A stretch of DNA of 39,633 nucleotides from Anaerolineae bacterium (GCA_025929715.1 JAICPS010000001.1:1-39633), one strand, 5' to 3'; counted from the first letter of the stretch, positions 10,556-34,924 are shown. A program made the numbers and translations. Notes: generated from the sequence alone by a model not told the origin.

Positions 10556-10618
10556 GACGCCCTTACGGACCTCTGCTTGCACTATACAAACAGAGTAGTC
10601 CATCCATGAGGCATACCC

Positions 10619-13632: not shown

Positions 13633-13649
13633 ACACAAAAGTAAGCACG

Positions 13650-15780: not shown

Positions 15781-15803
15781 GCCTACTGTCCTGGAGCGAG
15801 TAC

Positions 15804-16562: not shown

Positions 16563-16594
16563 TTTTTTCCACGACCGCGAATGCAACTTTTCCA

Positions 16595-17920
16595 ATGAAA
16601 CACGCGCATCCCTTCGGTTCCGTATTTTATCGCAAGCTAGACCACAACCGCCCGGTGGTCAGCCACGGTCAGGGCATCTACCTTTACGATGAGACTGGCA
16701 AACGTTATCTCGATGGCTCTGGCGGTCCTCTTGTGGTTAACGTCGGCCATGGACGTTCGGAAATCGTGCAGGCGATGGCCAATCAGGCGATGGCCGTCGC
16801 TTACGCACATGCCATCATGTTCACCAGTGAAGTATTGGAAACGTATTCACAAGAATTGGCCGCGGTCACGCCCATAGAAGACGCACGAATTTTCTTGCTG
16901 AGTAGCGGTTCTGAAGTCGTAGAGGGTGCGCTGAAGCTTGCCAGGCAGATACAAATGGCGCGGGGAGAGAGCGAGCGTCATCTAATCATCTCGCGCTCGA
17001 TGAGCTATCATGGCATGACTCTGGGAGCGCTTAGCGTCAGTGGGCGGCCAGGGCTCCGACGTCCTTATCTGCCTATGCTGCGCGATATGCCTCACATCCA
17101 GCACCCCTACCCTTATCGGAATGATCTCAGCGGGTGTGAGTTGGCCGGGCGGCTGGAGGAAGCTATTTTGGTACATGGTGCCAGCGACGTCGCTGCCTTC
17201 ATTGCCGAACCTATTAGTGGCGCTAGCCTGGGCGCGGTGGCGCCGCCGGACGATTATTGGCCCGCGATCCGCCAGATTTGTGATAGATACGGCGTTCTGC
17301 TCATCGTCGACGAGGTGCTGTGTGGGATGGGCCGCACGGGAAGATGGTGGGGCATTCAACATTGGAACGTGGCGCCCGATATCCTGGTGACATCCAAAGG
17401 TATTGCCGGCGGTTACTTTCCGCTGGCCGCGATCGCCGCGCGCCGGAGCGATATTGACGCGATTGCCGATTCGCTCGGCGACTACAATCACGGCGGTACC
17501 TTCAGTCATCACGCGGTTGGCGCTGCCGCAGGTCGGGCCACGTTGCAAATCATGCATCAGGAAAATCTGGTGCAACATGCAGCGCTCATGGGCGAAGCGC
17601 TCGGTCAGAGGTTACACGCCCGGCTTGGTAATCATCCGTCGGTCGGCGATATTCGTGGGCGCGGCCTCTTCTGGGCGCTGGAATTCGTCCAGAATCGTGA
17701 AACGAAGCTGCCCTTCCCTGCCCGCCAGAAAGTCGCGTGGCGCATATGGGAGAGCGCGTTCCAACTTGGTCTGGTTGTCTATTATTCACAGGGGTGCGTC
17801 GATGGACAAGATGGCGATCTGATTATGATCGGGCCACCTTTAATCATCAGCGAGGAACAGATCAACGAACTGGTTGATCTGCTGGCGATGGCCGTCGAAG
17901 ATACGCTTGCCAATCTATAA
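16595..17920 (+). CDS. Class III (omega-) aminotransferase, PLP-dependent
   Basis: Motifs: GQGIYLYDETGKRYLDGSGG, SGSEVVEGALKLAR, AAFIAEPI.GA, LIVDEVLCGMGRTGRWW and TSKGIAGGY (PLP lysine). Confidence 0.85.
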   Translation: MKHAHPFGSVFYRKLDHNRPVVSHGQGIYLYDETGKRYLDGSGGPLVVNVGHGRSEIVQAMANQAMAVAYAHAIMFTSEVLETYSQELAAVTPIEDARIFLLSSGSEVVEGALKLARQIQMARGESERHLIISRSMSYHGMTLGALSVSGRPGLRRPYLPMLRDMPHIQHPYPYRNDLSGCELAGRLEEAILVHGASDVAAFIAEPISGASLGAVAPPDDYWPAIRQICDRYGVLLIVDEVLCGMGRTGRWWGIQHWNVAPDILVTSKGIAGGYFPLAAIAARRSDIDAIADSLGDYNHGGTFSHHAVGAAAGRATLQIMHQENLVQHAALMGEALGQRLHARLGNHPSVGDIRGRGLFWALEFVQNRETKLPFPARQKVAWRIWESAFQLGLVVYYSQGCVDGQDGDLIMIGPPLIISEEQINELVDLLAMAVEDTLANL

Positions 17921-21394: not shown

Positions 21395-22855
21395 CTAATC
21401 GGCGCGGACGCAGCGCAATTGAATCACGCGCCGCGTGCCTTCGCTTACACGAACGCGCCTGTCGAGGCGAATCCCCACAAGCCACACCAGGTGATTCTCG
21501 TTAGCCACAATCGGCCAACCGCCACGCAACTGCGCCGGAATCTTTTCGTTAATCATGACGTCGGCGACTTTTACGCTGTGCCCGTGCATCCCAATTGGCT
21601 GTAGCCGTTCCCCGGAACGACGCGTGCGAACCAGCAATGGCGCTGCTCTGTCAGCATCTACATATTCTAGCCAACGAGCATCGTCGCCATCATCGCCGCG
21701 TTCGAACGTGTCGATTTGATTCCGGTCAATAAGCTCAGACTGCAACTGCCAGCCATTCTCAATGGTCACAGCGCCAGGTACAGCGAACTGGCGCAGGTCA
21801 CCCTCCGACAACTGAGGTTGGCCGTGCTGAGGTAGATTATCAACGGCAAATAGGAGTAATGTGTCATACTCCACTTCCAGCAAAATTGTGCCTGGGAGGC
21901 TAGCTCTCGCACCGACCTGGCCGCTGTCCGCAACGATACGCGCCTGCTCGACAGGCACAAAGCTCACGTCACGCAACGACTGGCTGAGCCGCCAGACAGC
22001 CTGGCGCAAGGTGCGCCGGCGCAAACTCAGTGGCAGTTCGCGCCATCGCGCCAGATCGAGACGATACCACCCCTCTCCAGCCGACGTTAAAACTGACGTC
22101 CAGGCAGAAGACTCCTGCCTTTGAAGAAACGCCACGTCGGCGCGCACAACTTCTGCGGTATGCAGCAGGCGCTCTCGTATCCGTGGATTGTATTCTTCCA
22201 GAAGAGGCAATAGTTCATGTCGCAGTCGATTACGGAAAAAGATCGTGTCCTCATTTGACAGATCGCGAACTGGCTCAAGGTCATGGGCAGCGCAATAGGT
22301 TTCAATCTCCGCCCTCGTCACCGCTAACAGTGGCCGCAATAAGCGGAGTTCTGGAAAGCCAGGCACCGTTCCAGCAGGTAACATCCCCCGCAACCCGTTC
22401 AGACCCGTTCCGCGGATGAAATGCATGAGGATCGTCTCCGCCTGATCATCGGCGGTATGGCCAACCACAACGTGACGGATTCCTAGCTCCAGAGCAAAGT
22501 TTCCCAGAAAATTGTAGCGTGCGTAACGCGCAGCCTCTTCCACCGAATAGCCCTCGATGCGCGCGAGCCGTGCGACCTCGACCGTGCCGATCTTGCAGCG
22601 AATGCCCCACTCTCTACAACGCGCAGCCACATACGCTGCCTCTTCAGTGGCAGTCGGTCGAAGCAAATGATTTAAATGTCCGGCAACGATTTGCTCTGGG
22701 TTATGAAGCGCCCCGTAAACCAGTAGATGGAGCAGCGCGAGTGAGTCCGGACCACCGGATACCCCGACGAGCAACACATCGTTCGCCGTCCAGAAAGGGC
22801 GTTCGCTCTCCTGTTCCCAAAGTTGTAACTGATGCTGCACGGCCTCGTGTAACAT
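21395..22855 (-). CDS. tilS: tRNA(Ile)-lysidine synthase
   Basis: PP-loop LLVGVSGGPDSLALL followed by HLNH.LR and GHTADDQAETILM. I trimmed the track ORF (to 22975) to M41 at 22855. The longer version would run through a terminator hairpin and into tRNA-Leu. Confidence 0.85.
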   Translation of the reverse strand: MLHEAVQHQLQLWEQESERPFWTANDVLLVGVSGGPDSLALLHLLVYGALHNPEQIVAGHLNHLLRPTATEEAAYVAARCREWGIRCKIGTVEVARLARIEGYSVEEAARYARYNFLGNFALELGIRHVVVGHTADDQAETILMHFIRGTGLNGLRGMLPAGTVPGFPELRLLRPLLAVTRAEIETYCAAHDLEPVRDLSNEDTIFFRNRLRHELLPLLEEYNPRIRERLLHTAEVVRADVAFLQRQESSAWTSVLTSAGEGWYRLDLARWRELPLSLRRRTLRQAVWRLSQSLRDVSFVPVEQARIVADSGQVGARASLPGTILLEVEYDTLLLFAVDNLPQHGQPQLSEGDLRQFAVPGAVTIENGWQLQSELIDRNQIDTFERGDDGDDARWLEYVDADRAAPLLVRTRRSGERLQPIGMHGHSVKVADVMINEKIPAQLRGGWPIVANENHLVWLVGIRLDRRVRVSEGTRRVIQLRCVRAD

Positions 22856-22913
22856 ATAGTGGTAGTGACGCCGCCAACGTCGAGGACTCGCCCGGCGCCG
22901 GGGTCTGAGGATC

Positions 22914-22944
22914 CTCAAAGAAAAATGGCCCGCCAGCACGGGCC
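22914..22944 (-). terminator. Intrinsic terminator after tRNA-Leu
   Basis: Minus-strand RNA: GGCCCG-UGCUGG-CGGGCC followed by AUUUUUCUUUGAG. It starts 7 nt after the tRNA 3' end. Confidence 0.6.
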
Positions 22945-22950
22945 ACTTTA

Positions 22951-23033
22951 TAGGGCGGGTGGGATTCGAACCCACACGGGGTCACCCCCGGCGGATTTTA
23001 AGTCCGCTGCGTCTACCATTTCGCCACCGCCCC
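22951..23033 (-). tRNA. tRNA-Leu (anticodon UAA), class II with long variable arm
   Basis: Minus-strand read: GGGGCGG-TG-GCGAAATGGTAGACGC-A-GCGGA-CTTAAAA-TCCGC-CGGGGGTGACCCCGTGT-GGGTTCGAATCCC-ACCCGCCCT-A. The anticodon loop CU-UAA-AA and the T-loop TTCGAAT are clear. There is a G1:U72 wobble and no encoded CCA. Confidence 0.9.
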
Positions 23034-23070
23034 AATTGTCACAAATAGCTGCTTACCAAATCACGACGCT

Positions 23071-23151: not shown

Positions 23152-23180
23152 TTGACTGCCCTCTGGCGCAACGGTATAAT
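23152..23180 (+). promoter_or_regulatory. Near-consensus sigma70-type promoter (TTGACT - 17 nt - TATAAT)
   Basis: TTGACT at 23152-23157 and TATAAT at 23175-23180 with an exact 17-nt spacer. The predicted TSS near 23187 leaves a leader of about 108 nt before the DUF4388 start at 23295. Confidence 0.6.
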
Positions 23181-23215: not shown

Positions 23216-23294
23216 TGCCACGTGGCTGGGACAGCAGCCAAATCACGAACGAATGGTGCGTACGAATCCGCACCGTTATGCAGGATTCTATGTT

Positions 23295-24134
23295 ATGGCC
23301 CTTAAAGGCAACCTGCGCGATTTTTCCACGACGCAACTGCTAAATTTGATCAATCTGGCGCGAAAAACAGGTACGTTGAGCATTGACGGTCCTCAACCAG
23401 CGCAGTTGTCTTTTCGCGAAGGGAAACTAATTTATGCCTCCCTCGGCAATGGCCAAAATGATCTGGCGCACGTGCTTTTTGAAGCGGGCAAGCTCAATAC
23501 TAAACAATTACAAATAATCCAGAGCCGGGCCGGTCGCACCAGCGACAAACAGTTGGGTCACCTTCTGATTCAGGCCGGCTACGTGACGCAGAGCGATATT
23601 ATCCAGAGTGTGCGGCAGCACGTGCTAGATATTGTTTACAAGCTGTTCACGTGGGCCGACGGGCATTTTCGATTTGATGCCAATCGGCTGCCTGAGCCTG
23701 ACCGAATTACGATTCCCATCGATCTGGAAAGCGTCATCATGGAAGGCAGCCGGCGGCTGAAAGAATGGGAACGCCTGCAGCATGAGCTCCCGAATCTCGA
23801 CGTGGCCCTGCGCTTTACCGAGCGACCAGACGCTCGCTTACGGAACATAAACCTGACCGTTGAGGAATGGCGCGTCGTTTCGTTCGTCAACCCTCGCAAT
23901 AACATCAGCCAGATTGCACGGGCCAATAATCTGAGCGACTTTCAGATTCGCCGGATTGTCTATGGTCTCCTTCAGGCAGGTCTCGTCGAATTTGTCCGCC
24001 AGCAGCGTACAGCGCCGGTGGTAAGCAAGACGAACAGTACGGCGCCGCCAGCGCCAGAACCGGTGGAGCAACAATCGCCGAGCGTAAAGCGCTCAGTCGT
24101 ACATCGTCTGATCGAACGGATTCGGAATCTTTAA
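23295..24134 (+). CDS. DUF4388 (PATAN-like) domain protein with C-terminal winged-helix-like segment
   Basis: N-terminus MALKGNLRDFSTTQLLNLINLARKTGTLSI is the classic DUF4388 opening. The C-terminal LTVEEWRVVSFVNPRNNISQIARANNLSDFQIRRIVYGLLQAGLVEFV looks like a wHTH of the DUF742 type. I chose ATG 23295 (AGGA 9 nt upstream) over ATG 23253. Confidence 0.75.
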   Translation: MALKGNLRDFSTTQLLNLINLARKTGTLSIDGPQPAQLSFREGKLIYASLGNGQNDLAHVLFEAGKLNTKQLQIIQSRAGRTSDKQLGHLLIQAGYVTQSDIIQSVRQHVLDIVYKLFTWADGHFRFDANRLPEPDRITIPIDLESVIMEGSRRLKEWERLQHELPNLDVALRFTERPDARLRNINLTVEEWRVVSFVNPRNNISQIARANNLSDFQIRRIVYGLLQAGLVEFVRQQRTAPVVSKTNSTAPPAPEPVEQQSPSVKRSVVHRLIERIRNL

Positions 24135-24214
24135 GCAATGGCAACAGCGACCTTCGGTTCATGCGAGGCGTTCTGCACTCGCGAGGCTTTCGGCTCTCGT
24201 TACAGGAAACTTTG

Positions 24215-24754
24215 ATGCAAGCAGTCAAAATGGTCGTGACCGGTCCTTTCTCAGCGGGGAAAACGCAATTCATCAGTGCGGTGAGCGAAATCGACGTCGT
24301 GTCCACCGAAAGGCGCATCAGTAGCGCGGCAGAGCAGATAAAGGAAACGACTACCGTCGCCATGGATTTTGGCCGTATTACGGTCGGACCCGACCTGGTC
24401 TTATATTTGTTCGGTACGCCGGGGCAGCGCCGCTTTGACTTCATGTGGGAGATCCTCTCCGAAGGTATGCTCGGCTTCATCGTTATCGTAGACAGCACAC
24501 GCCCCGAAACGTTTCGAGAGGCCAAGCGAATCCTTGAGACCTTTGAAACTTATGCTTCGACGCCGTTCGTCGTCGCCGCCAACAAACAGGATCATTCTGA
24601 TGCCTGGGAGCCAGACGATTTACGCATTATCCTCAGCTTACAAAATGGAGTGAAAGTTCTTCCATGTGTTGCTCTTGATAAAGAGAGCGTCAAGAACGTA
24701 CTGCTCGAACTCCTGTATTCCGTACTGGAGCGGATGGACGAGGAGGATCGTTGA
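24215..24754 (+). CDS. Small Ras-like GTPase, CvnD/MglA-type (COG2229-like ATP/GTP-binding protein)
   Basis: G1 GPFSAGKT, G2 region TTTVAMDFG, G3 FGTPGQRRF and G4 ANKQD. I trimmed the track ORF (24161) to MQAVKMVVTG at 24215, which puts the P-loop at the usual distance from the N-terminus. Confidence 0.8.
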   Translation: MQAVKMVVTGPFSAGKTQFISAVSEIDVVSTERRISSAAEQIKETTTVAMDFGRITVGPDLVLYLFGTPGQRRFDFMWEILSEGMLGFIVIVDSTRPETFREAKRILETFETYASTPFVVAANKQDHSDAWEPDDLRIILSLQNGVKVLPCVALDKESVKNVLLELLYSVLERMDEEDR

Positions 24755-25566
24755 GTTCCATCGTTACCGAGCAGGGAATCCTGCACTACGAGACGATCGG
24801 CCGGGGGCGACCGCTCATTTTACTTCACGGTTGGATAAACTCCTGGGATGTCTGGCGCAAGGCCATGATCGCGCTTGGTAGCAGCGATCGCTTTCGCGTT
24901 TATGCGCTCGATTTTTGGGGCTTCGGTGATTCAGCGAAGGGAAACCAAACGGAACTCAGTCCCTCATTTAGAATCGACAGCTATGTAGAAATGGTGCGCC
25001 AGTTTATGGATACGTTGGGTATACTGGAAGCCCCGATATTTGGCCACTCGATGGGCGGCACCGTGGCCCTAAAGTTTGCGCTGGCCAACGCGGACCGGGT
25101 GCGCAAAGTGGCCGTCGTGGGCTCGCCGATCGTGGGTTCCTCGCTGAATCCCTTTCTCAAGCTCGCCGGTTATGGCTTGATCGCCGACGTTATATGGCGA
25201 TTTCCCATATTGCTCAAGCTCGTAATGCACACGATTCTTGCCGGTGATTCAAAGCAAGTACGAGATATGATTTTTCGTGACGTCAAGCGAACAACGCTCG
25301 AGTCGTTTTTCCGCAGCATCGGCGATTTGCGCGAGACGGATCTTCGCGCGCCTTTGCACGGACTTGAAATGCCAGCGTTGGGCATCTTCGGTGTAAATGA
25401 CAATATCGTTTCCCCGCGTAATGCCGAACTCCTCACTGACTGTGTCACGCACGCACAGGTCGCCTTGATGCATCAATCGCGACACTTCCCCATGAGCGAC
25501 GAACCGGACAAATTTCTTACAGCCATGACCACCTTTTTAGGTGATAATGGCCTGAAAAGAAATTAA
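24751..25566 (+). CDS. Alpha/beta-fold hydrolase (intact Ser-Asp-His triad)
   Basis: LLHGW...ALDFWGFGDS, nucleophile elbow GHSMGG (Ser100, TCG at 25048-25050), Asp in GVNDNIV and His in SRHFPM. The start codon is TTG at 24751, overlapping the GTPase stop (TTGA), with AGGAGGA at 24741-24747. Confidence 0.85.
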   Translation: MSSIVTEQGILHYETIGRGRPLILLHGWINSWDVWRKAMIALGSSDRFRVYALDFWGFGDSAKGNQTELSPSFRIDSYVEMVRQFMDTLGILEAPIFGHSMGGTVALKFALANADRVRKVAVVGSPIVGSSLNPFLKLAGYGLIADVIWRFPILLKLVMHTILAGDSKQVRDMIFRDVKRTTLESFFRSIGDLRETDLRAPLHGLEMPALGIFGVNDNIVSPRNAELLTDCVTHAQVALMHQSRHFPMSDEPDKFLTAMTTFLGDNGLKRN

Positions 25567-25628: not shown

Positions 25629-26924
25629 ATGCGCCGAGTAATTCTCCAAGCACAGCGACAGATTCATCCATTCAACGAACCTGCTCGCGATCTCAGAGTG
25701 CAAAACAAACCGCTATGGTTGTGGCAGCGCGACTTGCTTGCGCCATATATCAGCGAAGAAAGAGAGTATCCCAACTGGGAGATCGCGCTGCGCTTTGAAG
25801 CGGACGAGCAGGTAGCGACCCTGGTTCATTGCGACAATCTCTTTTTCAACCAACTTTTCATTGCTGACTTTCTGAACCGAGCGAGAAGCGCAGGTGGTCC
25901 GGTGCGCCTCGCTTTACGCGCCGATGATCCGGCGATTGCCCACCATGTTCAGCCGCTAAGTCTCTCGTTTGTCGAGGAGGGTGACCTGCTATTAGCGGAT
26001 ATGTGGTTTCTACCTCGCGGCGTCGGCCAACGCGAAGATGCGGCGCCATTGGTCATCGCAACCGAATCGCGCGAGCGTGGTTACTACCACGTACCGCCTT
26101 ACATGGCCACGGATTTCGGCGATCTGACCTACCAGTTGCCCCGGAAAGCGTTCATCATCATTGAAAGCTGGGTCCATCTATTTGTCGCCGATATTCTATT
26201 CGGCGTCTTCACACGCGGGGTAAACCAGGAAGATCGAATCAGCGCCGACTGGCGCTACAAAATAAAGATCCTTCTGACGTCGCTCGTTGAGCAGCGACAG
26301 CTTCTTGAGTCTTCCGAGCTGGTGAGAGTTGGCCATAACGTAACAATAGATCCATCGGCGCGAATTCATGGACCGACCGTGATCGGCGATAACGTCACGA
26401 TTGGCGCCGGATCCGTCATCGACAACTGCATTATTGGCAATAATGTAACCGTTTCTCAGGGATGCCAGCTAATGCTGAGCGTCGTTAGCGATGGTTGCTT
26501 CCTCCCGTTCCGCGCCTCGCTCTTTATGACGACCCTCATGGAAAACACCATGGTCGCCCAAAACACCTGTCTCCAGCTTTGCGTAGTCGGTCGCGATACG
26601 TTCATCGGCGCAGGTACCACTTTCACCGACTTTAACATCTTACCGGCTCCCTTGAAGGCCGTGCTAAATGACGAACTTCGCGAAACGAACTTTCTGGTGT
26701 TAGGCGGCTGCGTGGGACACCATTGTCGCCTGAGTTCAGGATTGATCATTCATCCCGCTCGCACAGTCGAGTCAGACGTGGTCCTGCTCGCACGTGAAGA
26801 TCGAAACATTATTAGCCGGAACGTGCCATACGAGGACAGCGACCATTTTCCTTATGCTGAAATGTATCCATATCCACGGCTGTATCCCAGGCGCAACGAG
26901 ACCGAGCAAATGGAAGCGCTATGA
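25629..26924 (+). CDS. Hexapeptide-repeat (left-handed beta-helix) protein with an N-terminal GlmU-like/NTP-transferase-like domain of unknown function
   Basis: Aa 232-385 (nt ~26320-26785) show imperfect hexapeptide periodicity: VGHNVTIDPSARIHGPTVIGDNVTIGAGSVIDNCIIGNNVTVSQGCQL...VVGRDTFIGAGTTF...LGGCVGHHCRLSSGLIIHP. The N-terminal IHPFNEPARDLRVQNKPLWLWQRDLL resembles the opening of 'putative sugar nucleotidyl transferase'/alternative GlmU-like proteins. I see no GxGxR nucleotide motif. Confidence 0.55.
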   Translation: MRRVILQAQRQIHPFNEPARDLRVQNKPLWLWQRDLLAPYISEEREYPNWEIALRFEADEQVATLVHCDNLFFNQLFIADFLNRARSAGGPVRLALRADDPAIAHHVQPLSLSFVEEGDLLLADMWFLPRGVGQREDAAPLVIATESRERGYYHVPPYMATDFGDLTYQLPRKAFIIIESWVHLFVADILFGVFTRGVNQEDRISADWRYKIKILLTSLVEQRQLLESSELVRVGHNVTIDPSARIHGPTVIGDNVTIGAGSVIDNCIIGNNVTVSQGCQLMLSVVSDGCFLPFRASLFMTTLMENTMVAQNTCLQLCVVGRDTFIGAGTTFTDFNILPAPLKAVLNDELRETNFLVLGGCVGHHCRLSSGLIIHPARTVESDVVLLAREDRNIISRNVPYEDSDHFPYAEMYPYPRLYPRRNETEQMEAL

Positions 26925-28051
26925 GCGAGGATAGATTTGCTTTTATTATTCATCCGATAGACGTTCGACGCGATGTAAGCCGCAAATACCCTGCGCTTCG
27001 TCATCTTCCCACGTGGCTGATTGAACTGCTCTCCATCTTTTGCCCACCGTTGTACATCTCAAAGATCAGCGGCGTTCGCTCTAACGCAAACGGGCGCGAA
27101 TTGGAAGGCTGGTTTGTGGCTTGTCCGCTCTCAGCGCGCCTGATGCTGTCGCTGCCGCCAGAGTTCGTTTTTCGCAAGATTATCCAGAGCGGACGGTTGG
27201 CCGAGCGGCTCGGCGCGCGGATTTTAGGGCTTGGCGCATTTACCTCTGTGGTCGGCGACGGTGGTATATCAATCGCTCGCGCTCTGAGTATTCCGGTGAC
27301 AACCGGTAACAGCTATACCGTTGCGATCACAATGCACGCCGTTCGCCATGCTGCGAGACATTTAAAGGTCGATCTCCATGAAGCGACTGTAGCAGTGGTC
27401 GGCGCATCGGGCTCGATAGGGAGCGTCTGTGCCAGTTTGCTTGCCCCCGATGCTAAGCGGTTAATCCTGGTCGGCCGCAACGAGCACGCCTTGCAGCGCG
27501 TTGCGGAGCTATCGCGGCAGGCAGGCGCAGCCGACGTTCAAACAAACACAGAAGTTGCGAGTGTTCGCCAGGCGCAAATTGTAATAAGCGCCACCAACGC
27601 CCTGCAGGCCGTGCTCCGGTCAGAAGATCTACATCCTGGAGCGATCATCTGTGACGTGGCTCGACCGTGCGACGTTGCTCGACAGGTCTCAGAAGACCGG
27701 CCCGATGTTGTGTTTATCGAAGGCGGCGTAGTAGAGGTGCCCGGTGACGTGGACTTTGGTTTTGATTTCGGAGCTCCACCTGGAATGGCTTACGCCTGTA
27801 TGGCCGAGACGATGGCTCTCGCGCTGGAAGGCCGTTATGAGTCCTTTACGCTGGGCAAAAGGCTTGAACCGGCGCAGGTCGCCGCGATTGATAAGATTGC
27901 CGCGCGACACGGGTTCAAGTTAGGTGGTCTCCGTAACCTCCAACAGACTGTATCAGGATCAGAATTTGCTGCCGGTGCAGCGGGCGCGTCCCCTGGCCGT
28001 CAGCATGAGAAGGTCGCCGTCGGCGCTGCCGATTACATCTTAGAATCTTGA
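26921..28051 (+). CDS. Homolog of cyanobacterial long-chain acyl-[ACP] reductase (AAR family), NAD(P)-binding
   Basis: Block-by-block resemblance to S. elongatus AAR as I remember it, written ours/AAR: FAFIIHP/FGLIGH, LGLGAFTSV/ALGGFTSI, TTGNSYTVA/TTGNTHTAY, ATVAVVGASGSIGS/ATVAVVGATGDIGS, IEGGVVE/LNGGVVE, YACMAETMAL/FACFAEAML (Cys293 here, TGT at 27797-27799), RHGFKL/RHGFQPL. The start ATG overlaps the upstream stop (ATGA). Confidence 0.75.
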   Translation: MSEDRFAFIIHPIDVRRDVSRKYPALRHLPTWLIELLSIFCPPLYISKISGVRSNANGRELEGWFVACPLSARLMLSLPPEFVFRKIIQSGRLAERLGARILGLGAFTSVVGDGGISIARALSIPVTTGNSYTVAITMHAVRHAARHLKVDLHEATVAVVGASGSIGSVCASLLAPDAKRLILVGRNEHALQRVAELSRQAGAADVQTNTEVASVRQAQIVISATNALQAVLRSEDLHPGAIICDVARPCDVARQVSEDRPDVVFIEGGVVEVPGDVDFGFDFGAPPGMAYACMAETMALALEGRYESFTLGKRLEPAQVAAIDKIAARHGFKLGGLRNLQQTVSGSEFAAGAAGASPGRQHEKVAVGAADYILES

Positions 28052-28063
28052 GGAAGAGATCTC

Positions 28064-28963
28064 ATGAGCAGTGGTAGAATCTTAGTGGTCGAAGACGATT
28101 TCGATATCTCTAACATGCTGCGCATTTATTTTACGGGACAGGGATACCAGGTCGAAGTCGCCGCTCGTGGCGGCGACGCGTTGGCGATGTGTCGCCGTAA
28201 GCTGCCAGATCTGATCGTACTAGATATTATGTTGCCGGATATGGATGGCTATTCAGTATGCCGTGAATTGCGAATGGCGACACGCACAAGCCACATTCCG
28301 GTAATCTTTTTAACCCAGAAAGACGAGCGTAGCGACAAGATAGCCGGGTTAGAGTTGGGCGCCGACGATTACATTACCAAACCGTTCGACATCGAGGAGC
28401 TCAAACTGCGGGTGCGGAGCGCAATACGTGCGCATCAGCGCCTGAACATGACCGATCCACGCACCGGACTGCCCAGTGGCCGGCTGATAGAAGAACAGTT
28501 GCGCCGCCTAATGCGACGTGATGATTGGACCTTTATTCTTGCGGGGATCGATCACCTGGACATTTTTAATGATGCCTATGGGTTCGTCGCCGGTGATGAA
28601 GTACTTCGCTTCGCAGCGCTGCTCTTTGGCGACGTCCTGGACCACACCGGCACTGAGAACGACTTTCTCGGCCATGCGAGCAGCGCAACCTTTACTATCA
28701 TCACGTATAGCCCGGACGTGGGCGCGCTCGTTTCTCAAATGCGCCGGCGATTTCAAGAAGAAGTGCGTCCGCATTATAACTTTATGGACTCTGAGCGCGG
28801 TAGTGTGGCGCTCCACGATGGCGCCATCGGACCACTCATGACCCTTAGCGTGGGTGTTGTCTCCGGTCGCACGGACAGTTTTGCCGACATTCGCGAAATC
28901 ACAGAGACCGCCGCCGAACGGCGGCGTGCGGAGAGAGAGCCACGGGTCCAGGTCGGACAATGA
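28064..28963 (+). CDS. Response regulator: receiver domain plus degenerate GGDEF domain
   Basis: The receiver is intact: EDD at aa 10-12, phospho-acceptor D54 in LIVLDIMLPDMDG, and K106 in TKPF. GGDEF-fold landmarks are DPRTGLPSGR and GIDHLDIFNDAYGFVAGDEVL. The signature motif reads GHASSATF (aa 203-210, nt 28670-28693) where RxGGDEF is expected. Confidence 0.85.
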   Translation: MSSGRILVVEDDFDISNMLRIYFTGQGYQVEVAARGGDALAMCRRKLPDLIVLDIMLPDMDGYSVCRELRMATRTSHIPVIFLTQKDERSDKIAGLELGADDYITKPFDIEELKLRVRSAIRAHQRLNMTDPRTGLPSGRLIEEQLRRLMRRDDWTFILAGIDHLDIFNDAYGFVAGDEVLRFAALLFGDVLDHTGTENDFLGHASSATFTIITYSPDVGALVSQMRRRFQEEVRPHYNFMDSERGSVALHDGAIGPLMTLSVGVVSGRTDSFADIREITETAAERRRAEREPRVQVGQ

Positions 28964-28987: not shown

Positions 28988-31900
28988 ATGTTGCAGAAAG
29001 AACAGCCTCCGGCAGTTGCCCAATTAGAGGCGCTATCCAGGGTAAGTAACCGCCTGGGAGCCACCCTTTTGCTGGACGAAATTTTGAATCTGGTACTGTT
29101 GGAAGCAGTGCAGAACTCTAATGCATCGTGCGGCGAAATCTTGCTCCTCGACGAGAACCAGGGCATTGATGCGACGTACACATTCCCAGGTCCGGCGCCG
29201 GCGACACCACGCCTTAATGAGCAGGTCATAGAGCGGAAGTCAGCTCACGTTTACGCCGTTGCTTCACTGTTGGAGCCAGCACAGGCTAGAGAGCAGCTGC
29301 ACTTCGCGCTCATTGCACCGGTACTTTTCGAGAGTCGCGTCTCTGGACTGATCCGCCTCATCAGCGCCGATCCCAACGGCTTTGCCGACACGGATCTTAC
29401 ATTCGTGTCGGCGCTCACAGATCTTACAGCGCTAGCCGTTGGAAATGCACTGCGCTTCAGCGAATTGAGGGAGCGAAACACGCTGTTACAGCGCCGCACA
29501 CAGCAGATCGAGCATTTCCTGGAATCAAGTCGAGTGTTCCATAGCGAACGACGGCTGGAAGAAGTTTACGAAGAGTTGGTGTATGCCATTCAGGAAGGTG
29601 TTGGCTATAACGTTGTCTTACTTAGCCTTGTCGAAAATACTGGCCAGGGAATGAGCTTGCGACGAGTTACGGCAGCCGGACTTCCGATAGAGCGGCTGAA
29701 AGAAATCCAAAAAACGCCACAATCCTGGCAGGAAGTCGAGAAGTTGTTCTCGCCCAATTTTCGCCTGGGAGGCGCCTATTTTATAGCGCGAGGCACTTCC
29801 AGTGCTGAGGGACTCGGGCTTTCCGTGCCTCACGTTGGCGACCTATATCGATCTCCTCTTGCTCCTAATCGAACGCCACTCGAAAAACTGTGGAATGAAG
29901 CGGATCTCTTTTTCATCCCCTTGCGGGATATGCAGGGCAAACCGCAAGGACTTATCAGCCTCGCTTCGCCGATTGATGGGCTTCGCCCCGATTTAAATAC
30001 AGCGCGGGTTCTTGAAGTCTTTGCCAACCAGGCGGCAAGCGCAATCGAGAACGTGCAGTTATTCCACAATATGTGGGATTATGCCTTGCAGCTGCAACAA
30101 CTCCATAACGTCTCACAGCAGACCTTGCGCGAGCGAGATTTTGATCGACAGTTGGAGATCATTCTCGATGGACTACAAATTGCCGGTTGGCAGCGTGTGA
30201 CGCTGACCTTGCGCGACGAAGCCTTCAAAGTTACCAAACTTATTTCGGCCGGCTTATCGACCGCCGAGCACGACGCGCTCGAGCATACGCTCCTGCCGGC
30301 CGCTATCTGGCGGCAGCGGTTCGGCCATGAAACACTCCAGCAATATAGACGTGGTAATTGCTACTTCGTTCCCGACGACGATCCACGGACACGCCCGGCG
30401 GTCGAAGCCGTATTTCCGGCGGCCGCCCAGCCCGAAACTGACGAACGATGGTCTCCCGGCGGAGTGCTGTACCGGCCATTATTCGATCGAGAGCAGCAGT
30501 TAATAGGCCTGCTGGCGCTCGCATCGCCCGACAGCCATCGACATCCTGACGAAAACGGGCTGCAGACGATAGACCTCTACGCACAGTTCGCCATATCCGT
30601 AATCGAAAGCCATCGCATGTTTAGCGAAATGCAACGGCGCAGCCAGGAGCTCCAAGCCCTTTTTGACGCGAGTAAGGCGTTGTCAGGAACGTTGAAGCAG
30701 GATGCCATTCTGACCGCCATGGGGGAGCATATGCTGCAGGCGGTAAGCGCCAGCGCCTATACAGTCTATGCTCTGACGCGGAACAGGCGCGATACCGTGG
30801 TGCTGCGCAGCGAATCAAAGGTGGGCTGGCTAGACGAAGAGCCGGCCGGTACCCAGAGCCAGATCAGGCAGGTGTCGTTAGCCCAAAAGGTAATTGAAAC
30901 AAGGCGGGCCGCTGCACAGGACTTCTCAGCGCCGTCAACTGGCGCGGGCGCCGAGCAAGGTGAACGCTTCTCGCTGGCTATGTTGCCCCTACCCCTTGGT
31001 GACGAGCTTTTTGGCCTGGTAGAGGTCATTGCGACCAACTCACAGTTTAATTGGACTCCAGACAAGCTCCAGCTGCTGGAAGCTATCGCCAATCAGGCCA
31101 GCACGGCCCTGGAGACTGCTCATCTCGTAGAGGAGTTAGATGATCGCGTCGCTCAACGAACCCGCGCACTGGCGGAAGAGGTTGCCCGCGTTCAGTCTAT
31201 CCTTGAAAGTATGGCGGATGGCGTTCTTGTGGCCGAGGCTGACGGAACCATTTTGATGGCAAACATGCCCACGGCGCAATACTTCGACTTACCCCAAGAA
31301 CGATTGGTTGGTCAACCCGTGGAAAAGCTTAAGAGCCCACATGGTAACGGCGCCGATCGTTGGGCCAACACAGTGCGCATGTGGTCAACGCAATCCGCAA
31401 GCCTTCAACCACACGGCGCTGTAAAGGACCAGATAGAAGTCGGCGCCCGGGTGCTAAATGTCCACGTTTCTCCTGTATTTGCCAACGGTCACTTCTTCGG
31501 CACCATCTCTATCTTCCGCGATATCACACGAGAGGCCGAAGTTGACCGCATGAAAAGCGAGTTTGTGTCTACAGTGTCACACGAGCTTCGTACGCCGATG
31601 ACCTCGATCAAGGGTTACACGGATCTTCTGCTCATGGGCGCTGCCGGAGAAGTGCCCGAACCCCAACATCGCTTTCTGGAGGTGATCCGCAAGAATGCGG
31701 ATCGACTGACGGTCCTGGTAGACGATCTTCTGGACATTTCGAGAATTGAGACGGGTAAGACCGATTTGAAACTGCAACCTGTCGACGTATCACGAATCAT
31801 TCAGCACGATATTGGAGAACACGTCAGAGGCCGCATCCAGCACGAAAACAAGGCGCTCAATTTTTCGATTTCTCTGGAACCGCCGCTGCCACCGGTTCAC

Positions 31901-32353
31901 GCCGATCCTGAAAAAGTTACCCGAATCTTGATGAATCTGGTAGACAATGCCATAAACTACACACCAGATGGTGGTACAATCGAGGTGCAGGCTTTCACGT
32001 CCGCTATCACCCACACTTCGGCGCAGAGTGAGAAAGGTTGCGGAGACATGGTTTGTATCCGCGTTCGCGATTCCGGAGTTGGCATCAGCCGCGAAAACAT
32101 CGAGCGTATTTTCGAGCGCTTTTACCGGGTCGAGGGCGGTAATTTTCAGGACGCGCCGGGCACAGGGCTTGGCCTCCCTATCGTACGCAGCCTGGTCGAG
32201 ATGCACGGTGGCGAAATATCGGTAGAAAGTGAACCTGGTGTTGGTAGCACCTTTACGTTTAGCTTGCCCTGTGTCAATGGGGATAAACACGATCTGACCG
32301 AAATATCAAGCGCGTCCTCATACGACGCCAACGCGAGGAAATTGAGAACATGA
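28988..32353 (+). CDS. Cytoplasmic sensor histidine kinase: four GAF-like domains, PAS, HisKA, HATPase_c
   Basis: No TM segment. Four repeats of about 170-190 aa each end in a GAF-like ...A.Q.A.A(I/L)EN..L... helix plus coiled coil, at aa ~10-165, 170-365, 370-560 and 560-730. PAS at ~735-850 (ADGVLVAEADGTILMAN...ISIFRDIT). H-box SHELRTP with His865 at 31580-31582. N box NLVDNAINYT, G1 RDSGVGI, G2 GTGLGL. Confidence 0.9.
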   Translation: MLQKEQPPAVAQLEALSRVSNRLGATLLLDEILNLVLLEAVQNSNASCGEILLLDENQGIDATYTFPGPAPATPRLNEQVIERKSAHVYAVASLLEPAQAREQLHFALIAPVLFESRVSGLIRLISADPNGFADTDLTFVSALTDLTALAVGNALRFSELRERNTLLQRRTQQIEHFLESSRVFHSERRLEEVYEELVYAIQEGVGYNVVLLSLVENTGQGMSLRRVTAAGLPIERLKEIQKTPQSWQEVEKLFSPNFRLGGAYFIARGTSSAEGLGLSVPHVGDLYRSPLAPNRTPLEKLWNEADLFFIPLRDMQGKPQGLISLASPIDGLRPDLNTARVLEVFANQAASAIENVQLFHNMWDYALQLQQLHNVSQQTLRERDFDRQLEIILDGLQIAGWQRVTLTLRDEAFKVTKLISAGLSTAEHDALEHTLLPAAIWRQRFGHETLQQYRRGNCYFVPDDDPRTRPAVEAVFPAAAQPETDERWSPGGVLYRPLFDREQQLIGLLALASPDSHRHPDENGLQTIDLYAQFAISVIESHRMFSEMQRRSQELQALFDASKALSGTLKQDAILTAMGEHMLQAVSASAYTVYALTRNRRDTVVLRSESKVGWLDEEPAGTQSQIRQVSLAQKVIETRRAAAQDFSAPSTGAGAEQGERFSLAMLPLPLGDELFGLVEVIATNSQFNWTPDKLQLLEAIANQASTALETAHLVEELDDRVAQRTRALAEEVARVQSILESMADGVLVAEADGTILMANMPTAQYFDLPQERLVGQPVEKLKSPHGNGADRWANTVRMWSTQSASLQPHGAVKDQIEVGARVLNVHVSPVFANGHFFGTISIFRDITREAEVDRMKSEFVSTVSHELRTPMTSIKGYTDLLLMGAAGEVPEPQHRFLEVIRKNADRLTVLVDDLLDISRIETGKTDLKLQPVDVSRIIQHDIGEHVRGRIQHENKALNFSISLEPPLPPVHADPEKVTRILMNLVDNAINYTPDGGTIEVQAFTSAITHTSAQSEKGCGDMVCIRVRDSGVGISRENIERIFERFYRVEGGNFQDAPGTGLGLPIVRSLVEMHGGEISVESEPGVGSTFTFSLPCVNGDKHDLTEISSASSYDANARKLRT

Positions 32354-32354
32354 C

Positions 32355-32720
32355 ATGGCGAAAATTCTGATAGCTGAAGACGATTTAGATATCCGCGAAC
32401 TGGTTGTGCTGACGCTTCAATTCCATGGACATCAAGTAATCAGCGCGTCTGATGGCGCTCAGGCCGTCGAGAAAGCACAACAGGGCTCGTTTGACCTTAT
32501 CTTGATGGACGTTCGCATGCCGCGTATGACCGGGTATGAAGCGTGCCGTCGACTGCGCGAAAATGACGCGACCAGGGACACGCCAATCATTTTCCTTTCG
32601 GCGAAGGGGCAGGAAGCCGAGATTCAGGCCGGAATGGACGCCGGCGCCACGCAATATATCCTTAAACCATTCGCGCCTGATATCTTGGCCACGAAGATAA
32701 AGGACGTACTAGGCGCCTGA
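32355..32720 (+). CDS. Single-domain response regulator (CheY-like)
   Basis: KILIAEDD...DLILMDVRMPRMTG...PIIFLSAKG...ILKPF. The ATG lies 1 nt after the kinase stop codon. Confidence 0.9.
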   Translation: MAKILIAEDDLDIRELVVLTLQFHGHQVISASDGAQAVEKAQQGSFDLILMDVRMPRMTGYEACRRLRENDATRDTPIIFLSAKGQEAEIQAGMDAGATQYILKPFAPDILATKIKDVLGA

Positions 32721-32773
32721 TTGATGCAGATTCTTTGTCGAGCTATCTCGGCGTATAGTCGAAAGTAAACAAG

Positions 32774-33565
32774 ATGAGCATCACGACGATCGGAAGAAAT
32801 CTGGTCCACTACGAAGCTCTGGGCCGCGGCAAGCCATTGATTTTCATTCATGGCTGGCTTGGTTCGTGGCGCTATTGGTGGCCGTCGATGCAGGCGCTCG
32901 CCACGCATTACCGCACCTTTGCCCTGGACCTTTGGGGATTTGGCGATTCGAGTAAGGTCAGCGAGAAGTACTCGCTGTCGAATTACATGGAAATGCTGGA
33001 CCAGTTCATAGAAGGCCTGGGTATAGCCGTCCCGGTTGTCATCGTCGGACATGGCCTGGGAGCAGGCGTCGCCATTCGATATGCGCTGCAAAATCCAGAG
33101 GACGTGGCACGAATTGCTCTTGTCGGGCTGCCTGTAAGCGGGGCAGCGCTGAATACCCGCCTCGTTCAGGGTGATAACCTGGCTGCTGCCATCCGCGTTA
33201 CAGGTAGAGCAAGAACTTTTCCCGAGATTGAAGTCGAGCTGAGGAAGAGCGATCCCGTCGCCGTTACCGCGCTTATGGACGAAATGCATCGATCCGACTT
33301 TTCGAATGATTTGCAACAGCTCAGCTGTCCGCTGCTGTTGCTTTTTGGCGGGCAAGATCCCCTCATCCAACAACCCAACGGCGAACATGCAGCCATCCGC
33401 GAAACCGCATTCAATCGCGCATACATTTGCTTTGACTCCTGTATGCACTTCCCGATGCTCGAAGAAACCGCGAAGTTCAACCGGTTGGTGCTGGAATTTC
33501 TGCATAGCGATAATGATCTGCGCAGCCTTTCGCCAAAGAACTATTGGAAACGCCGCACGCACTAG
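32774..33565 (+). CDS. Alpha/beta-fold protein, paralog of 24751..25566, with nucleophile Ser replaced by Gly
   Basis: FIHGWLGSW...ALDLWGFGDS aligns along its length with the first hydrolase. The elbow reads GHGLGAG (Gly94, GGC at 33053-33055) in place of GHSMGG. The Asp (GGQDPLI) and His (CMHFPM) contexts are retained. Confidence 0.8.
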   Translation: MSITTIGRNLVHYEALGRGKPLIFIHGWLGSWRYWWPSMQALATHYRTFALDLWGFGDSSKVSEKYSLSNYMEMLDQFIEGLGIAVPVVIVGHGLGAGVAIRYALQNPEDVARIALVGLPVSGAALNTRLVQGDNLAAAIRVTGRARTFPEIEVELRKSDPVAVTALMDEMHRSDFSNDLQQLSCPLLLLFGGQDPLIQQPNGEHAAIRETAFNRAYICFDSCMHFPMLEETAKFNRLVLEFLHSDNDLRSLSPKNYWKRRTH

Positions 33566-33659
33566 CATACCATTAGCAGACCACGTATAATTTGCCTCCC
33601 CCACAACTTCCTCGGACAATCAGCGCCTCGTAGAAACACGGAATACAAGGAACGAATTA

Positions 33660-34886
33660 ATGGTATTGCGCCGTTTATTTGCACGCTTATTTCTTCTTGC
33701 CGGGATACTTATTGTCGGCTGCCAAACTTCTTCTGCTCCAGGTACCGGCTCTTCGTCCTCGACCATGCCGGCATCACAAGCGACCGGCCTGGCGCCCACC
33801 GCGCAACCCACGCTGGTTCCCGGCGCCGCGACGCCAACCGCGGCGCCGCTGGTCAGTACACCAGATACGGCGCCCTCGCCCGTAGGCTCCCCCGTAACGC
33901 AAGCTGAACCGACACAATCCATACCCGGATTAATCGGACCCGACAATTTCGCGCCCAATGTGAACCCACTAACCGGTCTGGTGGTCGACGATCCTGCGCG
34001 CCTGAACCGGCGGCCCGTCGCCATAAAGATTTCGAATTATCCTGCGGTCGTTCGCCCACAATCTGGATTGAATAGCGCAGATCTCATTTTCGAGCATTAC
34101 GCAGAGGGTGGGGTCACCCGGTTCACGGCCGTCTTTTATGGCAACGACGCCAACCCGGTAGGGTCCATACGCAGCGGCCGGCTAATCGACCTGGAGATAC
34201 CAAAGATGTATGACGCCGCGTTTGCTTACTCGGGTTCTAGCGGTCCGGTGCGTCTCATGCTGCGTGACAGTCCATTTTTTGACCGGATCATTTCGCCCGA
34301 TTTTGGTCATGGTGGCTACTTCCGCGTAGAAGATCCCAACAAGGCCTTTGAACATACACTGTTTACCGATACGGGCACTTTGCGCGCCATTCTCGAGGAA
34401 CGAGGCCTAAATACGCCCCCGCAATTTCAGACGAACATAGCCTTCCATCCTCAGCCGCCTGCCGGCGGCGTCCCAGCCAGCTCCATCGAGGTTCGTTACA
34501 TAGGGACCAATGCCTTCTGGCGCTACGATCCGATTACCACCGGCTACGTACGGTCCACAGATGGCGTGGTCCACGTAGACGCTAACACCGGTCAACAGCT
34601 AAACTTTCAGAATATCGTCGTAGTCGCAGCGCACCACGAAGATACGGACATCCTGGAGGATCTTGTCGGAGGCGGTCACTATTCGATTCAAATTCAAACT
34701 TGGGGCGAAGGTCCGGTTTCTATCTTTCGCGATGGACAGCGTTTTGACGGCCGCTGGCGCCGGGAAAACGCCAACGACATGCTCACATTTTATGACCAGG
34801 AAGGGAATATCCTGCCATTGGCGCCGGGCAACAGCTTCTTTCAACTCGTGCCGCTTGGCTTCACCGGATTGGTCGTGACTCAGTAG
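33660..34886 (+). CDS. DUF3048-domain lipoprotein (YerB-like)
   Basis: Signal peptide with lipobox LIVGC, then a PT/A-rich linker. RRPVAIKISNYPAVVRPQSGLNSADLIFEHYAEGGVTRFTAVFY is typical of DUF3048. Confidence 0.8.
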   Translation: MVLRRLFARLFLLAGILIVGCQTSSAPGTGSSSSTMPASQATGLAPTAQPTLVPGAATPTAAPLVSTPDTAPSPVGSPVTQAEPTQSIPGLIGPDNFAPNVNPLTGLVVDDPARLNRRPVAIKISNYPAVVRPQSGLNSADLIFEHYAEGGVTRFTAVFYGNDANPVGSIRSGRLIDLEIPKMYDAAFAYSGSSGPVRLMLRDSPFFDRIISPDFGHGGYFRVEDPNKAFEHTLFTDTGTLRAILEERGLNTPPQFQTNIAFHPQPPAGGVPASSIEVRYIGTNAFWRYDPITTGYVRSTDGVVHVDANTGQQLNFQNIVVVAAHHEDTDILEDLVGGGHYSIQIQTWGEGPVSIFRDGQRFDGRWRRENANDMLTFYDQEGNILPLAPGNSFFQLVPLGFTGLVVTQ

Positions 34887-34893
34887 GAGTCAC
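34875..34893. terminator. Hairpin between convergent genes (DUF3048 gene / IPK gene)
   Basis: GTGACTC-AGTAG-GAGTCAC overlaps the TAG stop at 34884-34886. Only a weak T-rich tail (CTTATTTGT) follows. Confidence 0.3.
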
Positions 34894-34924
34894 GTCACTT
34901 ATTTGTAAGTTCGTAGCGCGGCTA

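Follow-up and report, generated by a model that had tools for sequence, protein, structure and literature searches.

The acyl-ACP reductase of cyanobacteria (AAR; EC 1.2.1.80, TIGR04058, structures 6JZQ and 6JZU) has been studied mainly as one half of the alkane pathway. Its partner, the aldehyde-deformylating oxygenase (ADO; PF11266), is to our knowledge confined to cyanobacteria, where its gene usually lies adjacent to that of AAR. In PigE, from the prodigiosin MAP pathway of Serratia (N-terminal domain NF053554; 4PPM), the N-terminal domain is followed in the same polypeptide by a class-III aminotransferase, which uses up the aldehyde, and the TamH-type reductase/aminotransferases of tambjamine biosynthesis are related to PigE. 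In glutamyl-tRNA reductase (GluTR; HemA, TIGR01035, 1GPJ), an activated acyl ester is converted into an acyl-cysteine and then into an aldehyde, which is handed to GSAM. A further described protein, the 'TAD' domain of the carmabin nonribosomal peptide synthetase (9E4U/9E4S, NADH complex), is embedded in an assembly line. Here we analyze a homologue of AAR and of the PigE N-terminal domain (PigE-N) that is encoded at positions 26921..28051 of the + strand in a stretch of 39,633 nucleotides, hereafter the window, from an Anaerolineae bacterium (GCA_025929715.1, JAICPS010000001.1:1-39633).

An initial annotation, made from the sequence, had described at this place a protein of 376 amino acids, and we find the corresponding open reading frame (ORF), which starts with ATG. 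From its sequence, its modelled structure and the analogy with AAR, we read the protein, with moderate confidence, as an NAD(P)H-dependent acyl-thioester reductase that would form a complex with a left-handed beta-helix (LbH) protein encoded directly upstream, or be controlled by it, the pair being expressed and probably regulated together with a module of GTPase, two-component and GGDEF proteins.

Sequence and modelled fold of the reductase

A sequence search of the PDB ranks PigE first (4ppm, E 9e-31), then AAR (6jzq/6jzu, E about 2e-23, 87 bits), and then GluTR (1gpj, 2.6e-6). HMMER aligns residues 13-333 of the protein with the AAR of S. elongatus (6jzq_A, E 1.6e-23). The best match among the NCBIfam profiles is the PigE N-terminal region (NF053554): positions 52-350 of a profile of 837 are matched with 194 bits, far below the full-length PigE cutoff of 850. 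The AAR equivalog TIGR04058 follows with 98.1 bits (cutoff 449.7), hemA obtains 41.4 bits (cutoff 209.55) on residues 130-257 only, and the shikimate dehydrogenase profile 20 bits (cutoff 221). The protein is 27% identical to AAR and about 35% identical to PigE-N, and shares with the latter the motifs GLG(A/G)FTS, TTGNS, and C-M-A-E-T. Unlike PigE, with its fused aminotransferase, it is a stand-alone reductase.

The AlphaFold2 model of the reductase, for which an alignment of 30 clade members served as input, is confident (pLDDT 83.3, pTM 0.84). When it is compared with known structures by Foldseek, AAR comes out on top (6jzu_A/6jzq, E about 1e-23), with 346-361 aligned columns, a query-normalised TM-score of 0.71-0.73 and a target-normalised one of 0.77-0.80, and the model has the three-domain fold of AAR over its full length. 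The second-best match is the carmabin 'TAD' domain (9e4u, TM 0.70/0.63, E 2e-17), which shows a weak match in sequence as well (E about 0.01) but only 18% identity. The relation to GluTR is distant and concerns the NAD(P)-binding domain, at residues about 130-257; the two proteins differ in overall architecture, and the 50 best Foldseek matches listed do not include 1GPJ.

Presumed active site and C-terminal extension

We aligned 143 members of the superfamily, including AAR and the PigE fragment. The Rossmann dinucleotide-binding motif VVGASGSIGS, already pointed out in the initial annotation, lies at residues 159-168 (27395..27424, +) and aligns with VVGATGDIGS of AAR. Its glycines G161, G164, and G167 correspond to G162, G165, and G168 of AAR and are invariant within the clade of the window protein. 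The same annotation had equated Cys293 with the catalytic Cys294 of AAR, and HMMER does place this residue, which lies in YACMAETM (residues 291-298; codon at 27797..27799, +), opposite the Cys of FACFAEAM in AAR. In the family alignment, the column of Cys293, which is the presumed acyl-accepting residue, is that of AAR C294 and PigE C296. It holds a Cys in 135 of the 143 members and in all 82 clade orthologues (82/82), and the residue is the one named in the title of PDB entry 6jzz, 'AAR-C294S'. E296 is conserved in 142/143 members, and D245, P249, T127, G129, and the glycines of GxxGxxG are near-invariant across the alignment. All these residues are shared with AAR, as is an Arg at the end of strand beta-2, where AAR has 'TARN'. 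At the position of this Arg186, 79 of the 82 orthologues have R and the other 3 have K, which suggests that NADPH is the cofactor.

The reductase has the consensus residue at 25/25 of the columns conserved in >=90% of the 143 members. The protein carries, by sequence, the marks of the AAR/PigE-N superfamily, i.e., the fold together with GLG..T, TTG, GxxGxxG, D..xP, and C.xE (COG5322-type 'predicted dehydrogenases'). Considering the fold, the alignment, and the 25 conserved columns, we conclude that it is a bona fide member of this superfamily and that its presumed active site is intact.

Database names and Pfam point elsewhere. NCBI and JGI call relatives of the protein 'shikimate dehydrogenase' or 'predicted amino acid dehydrogenase', and the one Pfam family that matches is Shikimate_DH (PF01488, 40.8 bits). 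Yet it is highly improbable that we are dealing with a dehydrogenase of shikimate, amino acids, or some other substrate in place of a thioester reductase. The Pfam match is restricted to the NAD-binding domain (residues 146-258), and the protein has no match to a substrate domain, while AroE combines PF01488 with PF08501. Neither the shikimate dehydrogenase nor the GluTR profile outscores those of AAR and PigE. In structure, ordinary dehydrogenases (amino-acid, shikimate, and other) reach TM-scores of at most 0.53 in either normalisation and at most 0.40 when normalised by the query. AroE gives 0.35-0.40 (query) and 0.44-0.53 (target) with a root-mean-square deviation (rmsd) >10 Å, and AroE and amino-acid dehydrogenases together span 0.34-0.40 and 0.37-0.53 with an rmsd around 10 Å, against 0.71-0.80 for AAR. 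Finally, the invariant Cys293/E296 motif is common to AAR and PigE and not to those families.

Three further cysteines, C68, C170, and C244, are invariant in the Anaerolineae-type clade and set it apart from AAR, which has S, V, and I at these positions, and from PigE, which has M, L, and I. C244 immediately precedes the family-invariant Asp245. These residues could have redox or regulatory roles specific to the clade.

The reductase also differs from AAR by an additional C-terminal helix and tail. The initial annotation spoke of an Ala/Gly-rich tail of roughly 45 residues that has no counterpart in AAR. There is indeed an extension beyond the core that can be aligned with AAR, but it is about 37 residues long (340-376; 27938..28048, +). 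Its first part, residues 340-357, is a semi-conserved helix (column identity 0.58; helix modelled at 346-356), and the Ala/Gly-rich remainder, residues 358-376, is unconserved (column identity 0.07) and predicted to be disordered (pLDDT <50). The length of the tail varies from 0 to 44 amino acids across 83 orthologues. Judging from the alignment, it is a disordered appendage that varies between lineages.

Relation to cyanobacterial AAR and absence of ADO

A search over 1.84 billion cluster representatives revealed 3,285 related clusters (at 50% identity), 900 of which have E <= 1e-30; the best 150 representatives score 205-364 bits. For the closest relatives we obtained >7,600 matches, and the top 120 are 56-73% identical to the window protein and 358-400 amino acids long. 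Those with a name belong to Anaerolineae, Ardenticatenaceae, Promineifilaceae, and comparable taxa. When the scan was made with one genome per species, at least 557 genomes had a relative, and the best 80 of these are almost all labelled as Anaerolineae-type Chloroflexota.

The neighbor-joining tree of the 143 members, whose leaves are sampled 50%-identity clusters, makes the window protein and its clade monophyletic. This clade sits in a group of 100 leaves; AAR and PigE lie outside that group and connect only at the root of the tree. The reductase clade, which is tight (57-73% identity), is distinct and non-cyanobacterial. These results qualify the initial assignment as an AAR homologue: the homology holds, in sequence and in fold, with the Cys and the Rossmann motif both kept, but the protein is not an AAR orthologue, as it obtains 98 bits where the equivalog cutoff is 449.7. 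On this sequence evidence its kinship with the cyanobacterial enzyme is distant.

Some relatives bear the label 'fatty aldehyde-generating acyl-ACP reductase', given by JGI pipelines. Together with the AAR fold and the catalytic Cys, this would fit a true AAR of an alkane pathway whose ADO is encoded elsewhere in the genome. We find this extremely doubtful given the low profile score, the 27% identity, the position of AAR outside about 100 closer clusters, and the lack of ADO in the window and in 85 related loci. Pfam scans of 27 large ORFs of the window gave no ferritin-like or ADO family, in agreement with the initial annotation. Another 18 ORFs of >=120 amino acids (mostly nested or antisense) are outside these scans and are covered by a six-frame tblastn search. 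For the latter, the query was an S. elongatus ADO sequence, validated against PDB 4quw_A/6jzu_B (507 bits). In the window and the 85 related loci, which add up to 1.44 Mb, the tblastn search for ADO returned nothing better than E=1.4.

The initial annotation regarded the missing ADO as a surprise. Since the reductase belongs to a separate, non-cyanobacterial clade, the absence of ADO is expected and is not an anomaly; it is the state one would expect for a non-cyanobacterial member of a superfamily of 3,285 clusters. In place of ADO, and among relatives labelled as Chloroflexota, the reductase has another fixed partner, a protein with a nucleotidyltransferase (NTase)-like and an LbH domain.

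A conserved partner with a left-handed beta-helix

The gene of this LbH partner, at 25629..26924 (+), encodes 431 amino acids with a diverged NTase-like N-terminal domain followed by the beta-helix (Pfam Hexapep, LbH_EIF2B, and GMPPB_C). Its stop codon overlaps the start of the reductase gene by 4 nt (ATGA). A gene of this family, encoding 424-440 amino acids, lies directly upstream and on the same strand in 73 of the 76 loci with enough flanking sequence. The pair is kept in relatives as distant as those of loci L094 (54% identical) and L088 (42% identical), and independent searches with the two families led to shared contigs. The LbH family is more conserved than the reductase, with 67-86% identity among the top 120. 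Its NCBI name, 'multidrug transporter', looks like a mis-annotation.

The protein does not pass any curated model, LbH_EIF2B for instance giving 46 bits where the cutoff is 54. A Foldseek search with a weak model of the protein gave as top matches two-domain proteins made of a sugar-1-phosphate NTase and an LbH (ST0452, VTC1, GMPPA/B, and GlmU), and lower matches (RmlA, IspD) that have the NTase domain alone. The two-domain architecture is the one found both in non-catalytic proteins, such as eIF2B gamma/epsilon and GMPPA, and in catalytic ones, such as GlmU, ST0452, and GMPPB. The LbH partner departs from them in several respects. The GxGTR signature is absent, and the N-terminus reads VILQAQRQIHPF at the place of the GxGTR loop. 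When aligned with E. coli GlmU by hhalign, only residues 230-347, in the coils of the LbH, find a counterpart, the NTase domain being unalignable; in this alignment the catalytic His363 of GlmU is opposite Gln311, which is invariant in the LbH partner. The two domains are joined by a long hydrophobic helical linker (residues 182-226 or 175-226). The beta-helix has seven invariant cysteines (C267, C279, C290, C314, C318, C361, and C366) and an invariant His364-His365 pair that are not known in the other proteins. The LbH partner is paired with a thioester reductase and not with sugar-nucleotide metabolism. The sequence is read most economically as that of a subunit of the eIF2B-gamma/epsilon or GMPPA type, which has lost catalysis and serves in regulation or as a scaffold.

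Genes around the pair

The initial annotation listed a hexapeptide-repeat protein, alpha/beta-hydrolases, and signalling proteins as neighbours of the reductase. They are present as stated, with the LbH protein and two alpha/beta-hydrolases among them, but they had been taken as unrelated context. They are instead part of a strongly conserved putative operon, from which more can be learned than from the rest of the locus. Ten genes follow each other between 23253 and 34886, all on the + strand, with gaps of -4 to 94 nt between them, as would fit a single operon.

The first gene encodes a PATAN/DUF4388 (PatA_N) protein of 293 amino acids (23253..24134, +; PF14332, 1.3e-29), found upstream and on the same strand in 44/55 of the related loci with enough flank. 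It is followed by a small Ras/Arf-like GTPase of 197 amino acids (24161..24754, +; ATP_bind_1/Arf/Ras) with an intact P-loop, GPFSAGKT, which is upstream of the reductase in 47/60 loci and 71-92% identical among the syntenic ones. The stop codon of the GTPase gene overlaps by 4 nt the start of the gene for alpha/beta-hydrolase 1 (ABH1; 24751..25566, +; 271 amino acids; Abhydrolase_1, 1.2e-26). ABH1 is encoded in 54/69 loci, and its nucleophile motif GHSMGG is present in 58/58 orthologues. We could not assign it a specific identity, its PDB and NCBIfam matches being generic (epoxide hydrolases, BioH, PcaD, PHB depolymerase). Between ABH1 and the LbH gene, 34/70 loci have a gene with a V4R domain, of the 4-vinyl-reductase type that binds small ligands (e.g., 7968-8612 in L003), and there is none in the window or in L001.

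Directly downstream of the reductase, 71/75 loci encode a response-regulator receiver joined to a degenerate GGDEF domain. In the window this protein has 299 amino acids (28064..28963, +; Response_reg 6.3e-30, partial GGDEF 5.2e-10). Its signature is GHASSATF, and the consensus of the clade is GHAGGDNF, as compared with GG(D/E)EF, and the protein is probably not an active diguanylate cyclase. Then comes a soluble histidine kinase of 1121 amino acids with a GAF-GAF-PAS-HisKA-HATPase architecture and no transmembrane-like segments (28988..32353, +). A GAF histidine kinase is downstream in 5/5 loci with called genes (L001-L005), and tblastn finds a match to the window kinase downstream in most others. 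The next two genes, a stand-alone receiver domain of 121 amino acids (32355..32720, +) and alpha/beta-hydrolase 2 (ABH2; 32774..33565, +), are each downstream of the reductase in 40/56 loci. ABH2 is a paralogue of ABH1 that has GHGLG for GxSxG. Of 41 orthologues, 26 have G at the nucleophile position, 8 have A, 6 have S, and 1 has T, so that 35/41 have no Ser there. ABH2 is probably non-catalytic, either a pseudo-enzyme or a protein that binds a ligand, and resembles in this the receptor-type alpha/beta-hydrolases. The last gene, for a DUF3048 protein with an N-terminal signal-like segment (33660..34886, +), is more loosely associated: among the closest loci, about 12 (L003, L006, L007, L009-L011, L013, L014, L017, and L018) have it downstream in the same orientation, and in the rest it is elsewhere or absent. 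The whole arrangement is kept in L094, where the reductase is only 54% identical. A metagenome-assembled genome of Anaerolinea thermophila (L045) has the cluster too.

Upstream, the cluster is bounded by a tRNA-Leu(taa) gene at 22950-23034 (-), which overlaps the 5' end of the TilS ORF at 21395-22975 (-); the true start of TilS must be further downstream than the listed GTG at 22975. Between this tRNA gene and the PATAN start there is a candidate sigma-70-like promoter (TTGACT-17-TATAAT, 11/12; 23152..23180, +), and at the DUF3048 stop a terminator-like hairpin of 8 bp, 5 of them GC, with a T-rich tail (34874..34894, +); both are plausible by position only. At the gathering threshold Rfam reports three tRNAs and no riboswitch or regulatory RNA in the cluster, and we found no convincing transmembrane segments in its proteins. 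An anti-phage defence system was considered and rejected, as PADLOC returned generic receiver-domain matches only. A 331-aa ORF antisense to the receiver and ABH2 genes (32624-33619, -) has no Pfam match and is most likely spurious in this GC-rich region.

One may ask whether these genes and the pair make up a small-molecule signalling device. The reductase and the LbH protein would make a signal derived from a lipid aldehyde, which ABH1, ABH2, and, where encoded, the V4R protein would process or sense and which the GTPase/PATAN and the two-component/c-di-GMP-type proteins would relay. In its most specific form, the reductase, gated by the LbH protein, would produce the ligand, ABH2 and/or the V4R protein would be the receptors, and the output would go through the GTPase and the two-component/c-di-GMP-type proteins. 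We consider the device unlikely, and the same judgement applies to its specific lipid-aldehyde form, in spite of suggestive observations: the ten-gene order is kept down to 54% identity, ABH2 usually has no nucleophile, the V4R gene is frequent, the GGDEF domain is degenerate, and all the proteins look cytoplasmic and soluble. Furthermore, locus L092 (715-5189) encodes a 781-aa fusion of PilZ, SRPBCC, and AAR-like domains, then an overlapping 7TM-GAF-HisKA histidine kinase, an independent case that would be a compact version of such a system. By sequence, AAR-like reductases are associated with c-di-GMP and histidine-kinase signalling at least twice independently. However, this support comes purely from gene context, which does not pinpoint ligand, receptor, or output, and it is common for conserved operons to combine metabolic with regulatory genes although the metabolite is no signal. 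In addition, the LbH, reductase, and receiver-GGDEF genes are kept where ABH1 is not at its position (15/69) and where the PATAN or GTPase gene is not at its position (11-13 of 55-60).

Partners of the superfamily in other loci

Other members of the superfamily have other partners. In 29 of the top 150 representatives we found a shared, unannotated N-terminal domain of ~300 amino acids with the motif S-x-G-S-S-K-R-D-H-K. It occurs as a separate adjacent gene in L050 (8971-9882, upstream) and L090 (4773-5678, downstream), and as a fusion in P0260 (residues 1-304; L087, 6453-8537). The domain has no Pfam or PDB relative. Among the loci examined it is restricted to L050, L087, and L090, being absent from the window and the Anaerolineae cluster loci. 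From these occurrences it appears to be a second type of partner of the reductase superfamily. An SRPBCC/START-like lipid-binding domain is found in 11 of the top 150, and several of the top 150 are fused to class-III aminotransferases (P0284, P0320), with GNAT/FemAB or AMP-ligase domains too. In L090, a stand-alone member, 48% identical, has an aminotransferase and an SRPBCC protein as its neighbours. These varied fusions and neighbours suggest that the theme of the superfamily is a thioester reductase together with a partner that differs between lineages and whose role is to handle or regulate a hydrophobic aldehyde.

One of these loci, L087 (195-10924), from a Chloroflexota metagenome-assembled genome (MAG), has the aspect of a neutral-lipid cluster, with genes for phasin, PHB_acc_N, patatin, SCP2, Fe-ADH, NHL-repeat, a second patatin, a 694-aa AAR-like fusion, an NAD-epimerase-like protein, and acyltransferase/DAGAT; it may correspond to a fatty alcohol or wax-ester route. 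A bulk role in lipid metabolism could be extended to the window: an unlinked alcohol dehydrogenase would turn the aldehyde into fatty alcohol for wax esters or ether lipids of the filamentous Chloroflexota envelope, and the signalling genes would do nothing but regulate its expression or activity. The frequency of SRPBCC fusions and the near-universal presence of the reductase in its clade, which suits a housekeeping function, speak for this role as well as L087 does. We nevertheless regard it as quite unlikely. No alcohol dehydrogenase, DAGAT/WS acyltransferase, ACP, or lipid-transfer gene is found in the window cluster and its 80+ relatives, where the fixed partners are the LbH protein and the response regulator.

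The window itself contains genes that could consume an aldehyde. In a same-strand group at 12070-17920, the gene for an aldehyde dehydrogenase (12070-13632) is followed by those for two subunits of a CoA-transferase (13650-14570 and 15750-16562) and for a class-III aminotransferase (16595-17920); between the two subunit genes lies an ORF of 416 amino acids (14530-15780) to which Pfam assigns no family. As PigE-N is the best curated profile of the reductase, and aminotransferases are fused to or adjacent to members of the family, a pathway resembling those of PigE and TamH was considered, in which this aminotransferase, 9 kb upstream, transaminates the aldehyde. We judge it very unlikely. The aminotransferase is part of a separate group with the aldehyde dehydrogenase and CoA-transferases, and between it and the cluster lie a tRNA and three genes on the opposite strand, which encode an HtrA-like protease, a GH57 protein, and TilS. 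No aminotransferase was called in the flanks of L001-L005, and the upstream flanks differ between loci. The aldehyde dehydrogenase was rejected as an aldehyde sink together with the aminotransferase on the same grounds, and the whole group at 12070-17920 appears unlinked to the reductase cluster. Further upstream (9191-12013) are two tandem paralogues of 454 and 464 amino acids that combine Peptidase_C39_2 with TPR repeats.

Proposed function

By analogy with AAR, the reductase would take an acyl group from a thioester carrier, either acyl-ACP or acyl-CoA, onto Cys293. The acyl-Cys intermediate would then receive a hydride from NAD(P)H, which the Rossmann domain binds at GASGSIG, and an aldehyde would be released. 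The LbH partner and the reductase most likely associate in a complex, in which the former would be a regulatory or scaffolding subunit or an acceptor of the product. Such a pairing would parallel those of AAR with ADO and of GluTR with GSAM, as well as the fused PigE. The overlap of the two genes points to translational coupling, and the pair would be co-transcribed with the signalling genes. From this presumed co-transcription with the PATAN, GTPase, hydrolase, response-regulator, and kinase genes, we infer that aldehyde production is probably controlled by the signalling module or is an input to it.

Several points weigh against this proposal. The identity and chain length of the substrate cannot be read from the sequence, and the conserved cluster has no ACP, fatty-acid-synthesis, or acyl-activating gene. 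The signalling genes could be neighbours of the pair through a common regulon and not through a common pathway, and the counts of promoter and terminator sites in the region are not above those of shuffled sequences. The AlphaFold2 model of the LbH partner is poor (pLDDT 54.5), with only residues 1-145, the N-terminal alpha/beta domain, being confident. The view of this protein as degenerate comes from one profile alignment and the absence of a motif, and its seven invariant cysteines and His-His pair could form an unrecognised active, metal, or Fe-S site.

Significance

The enzyme class described here is a known one, and some of the relatives have already been labelled automatically as acyl-ACP reductases. 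The Anaerolineae-type clade, its pseudo-NTase/LbH partner, and the conserved signalling operon appear to be undescribed. The AAR scaffold is far more widespread than cyanobacteria, and its partners include ADO, aminotransferases, SRPBCC domains, the ~300-aa domain, and a degenerate NTase/LbH protein. The superfamily also offers bioengineering a large pool of putative soluble aldehyde-forming reductases that are independent of ADO.

Sludge, sediments, and hot springs harbour Chloroflexota in large numbers. The clade, with members in at least 557 species-level genomes, goes by the name of 'shikimate dehydrogenase', and its re-annotation would provide a handle on the lipid or aldehyde metabolism of the group. 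The conserved pairing with an LbH protein inside a signalling operon is more interesting than the missing ADO that first drew attention to the locus, and it is a worthwhile lead. If the operon context is functional, it may link lipid-derived metabolites to GTPase, c-di-GMP, and two-component signalling in these filamentous bacteria.

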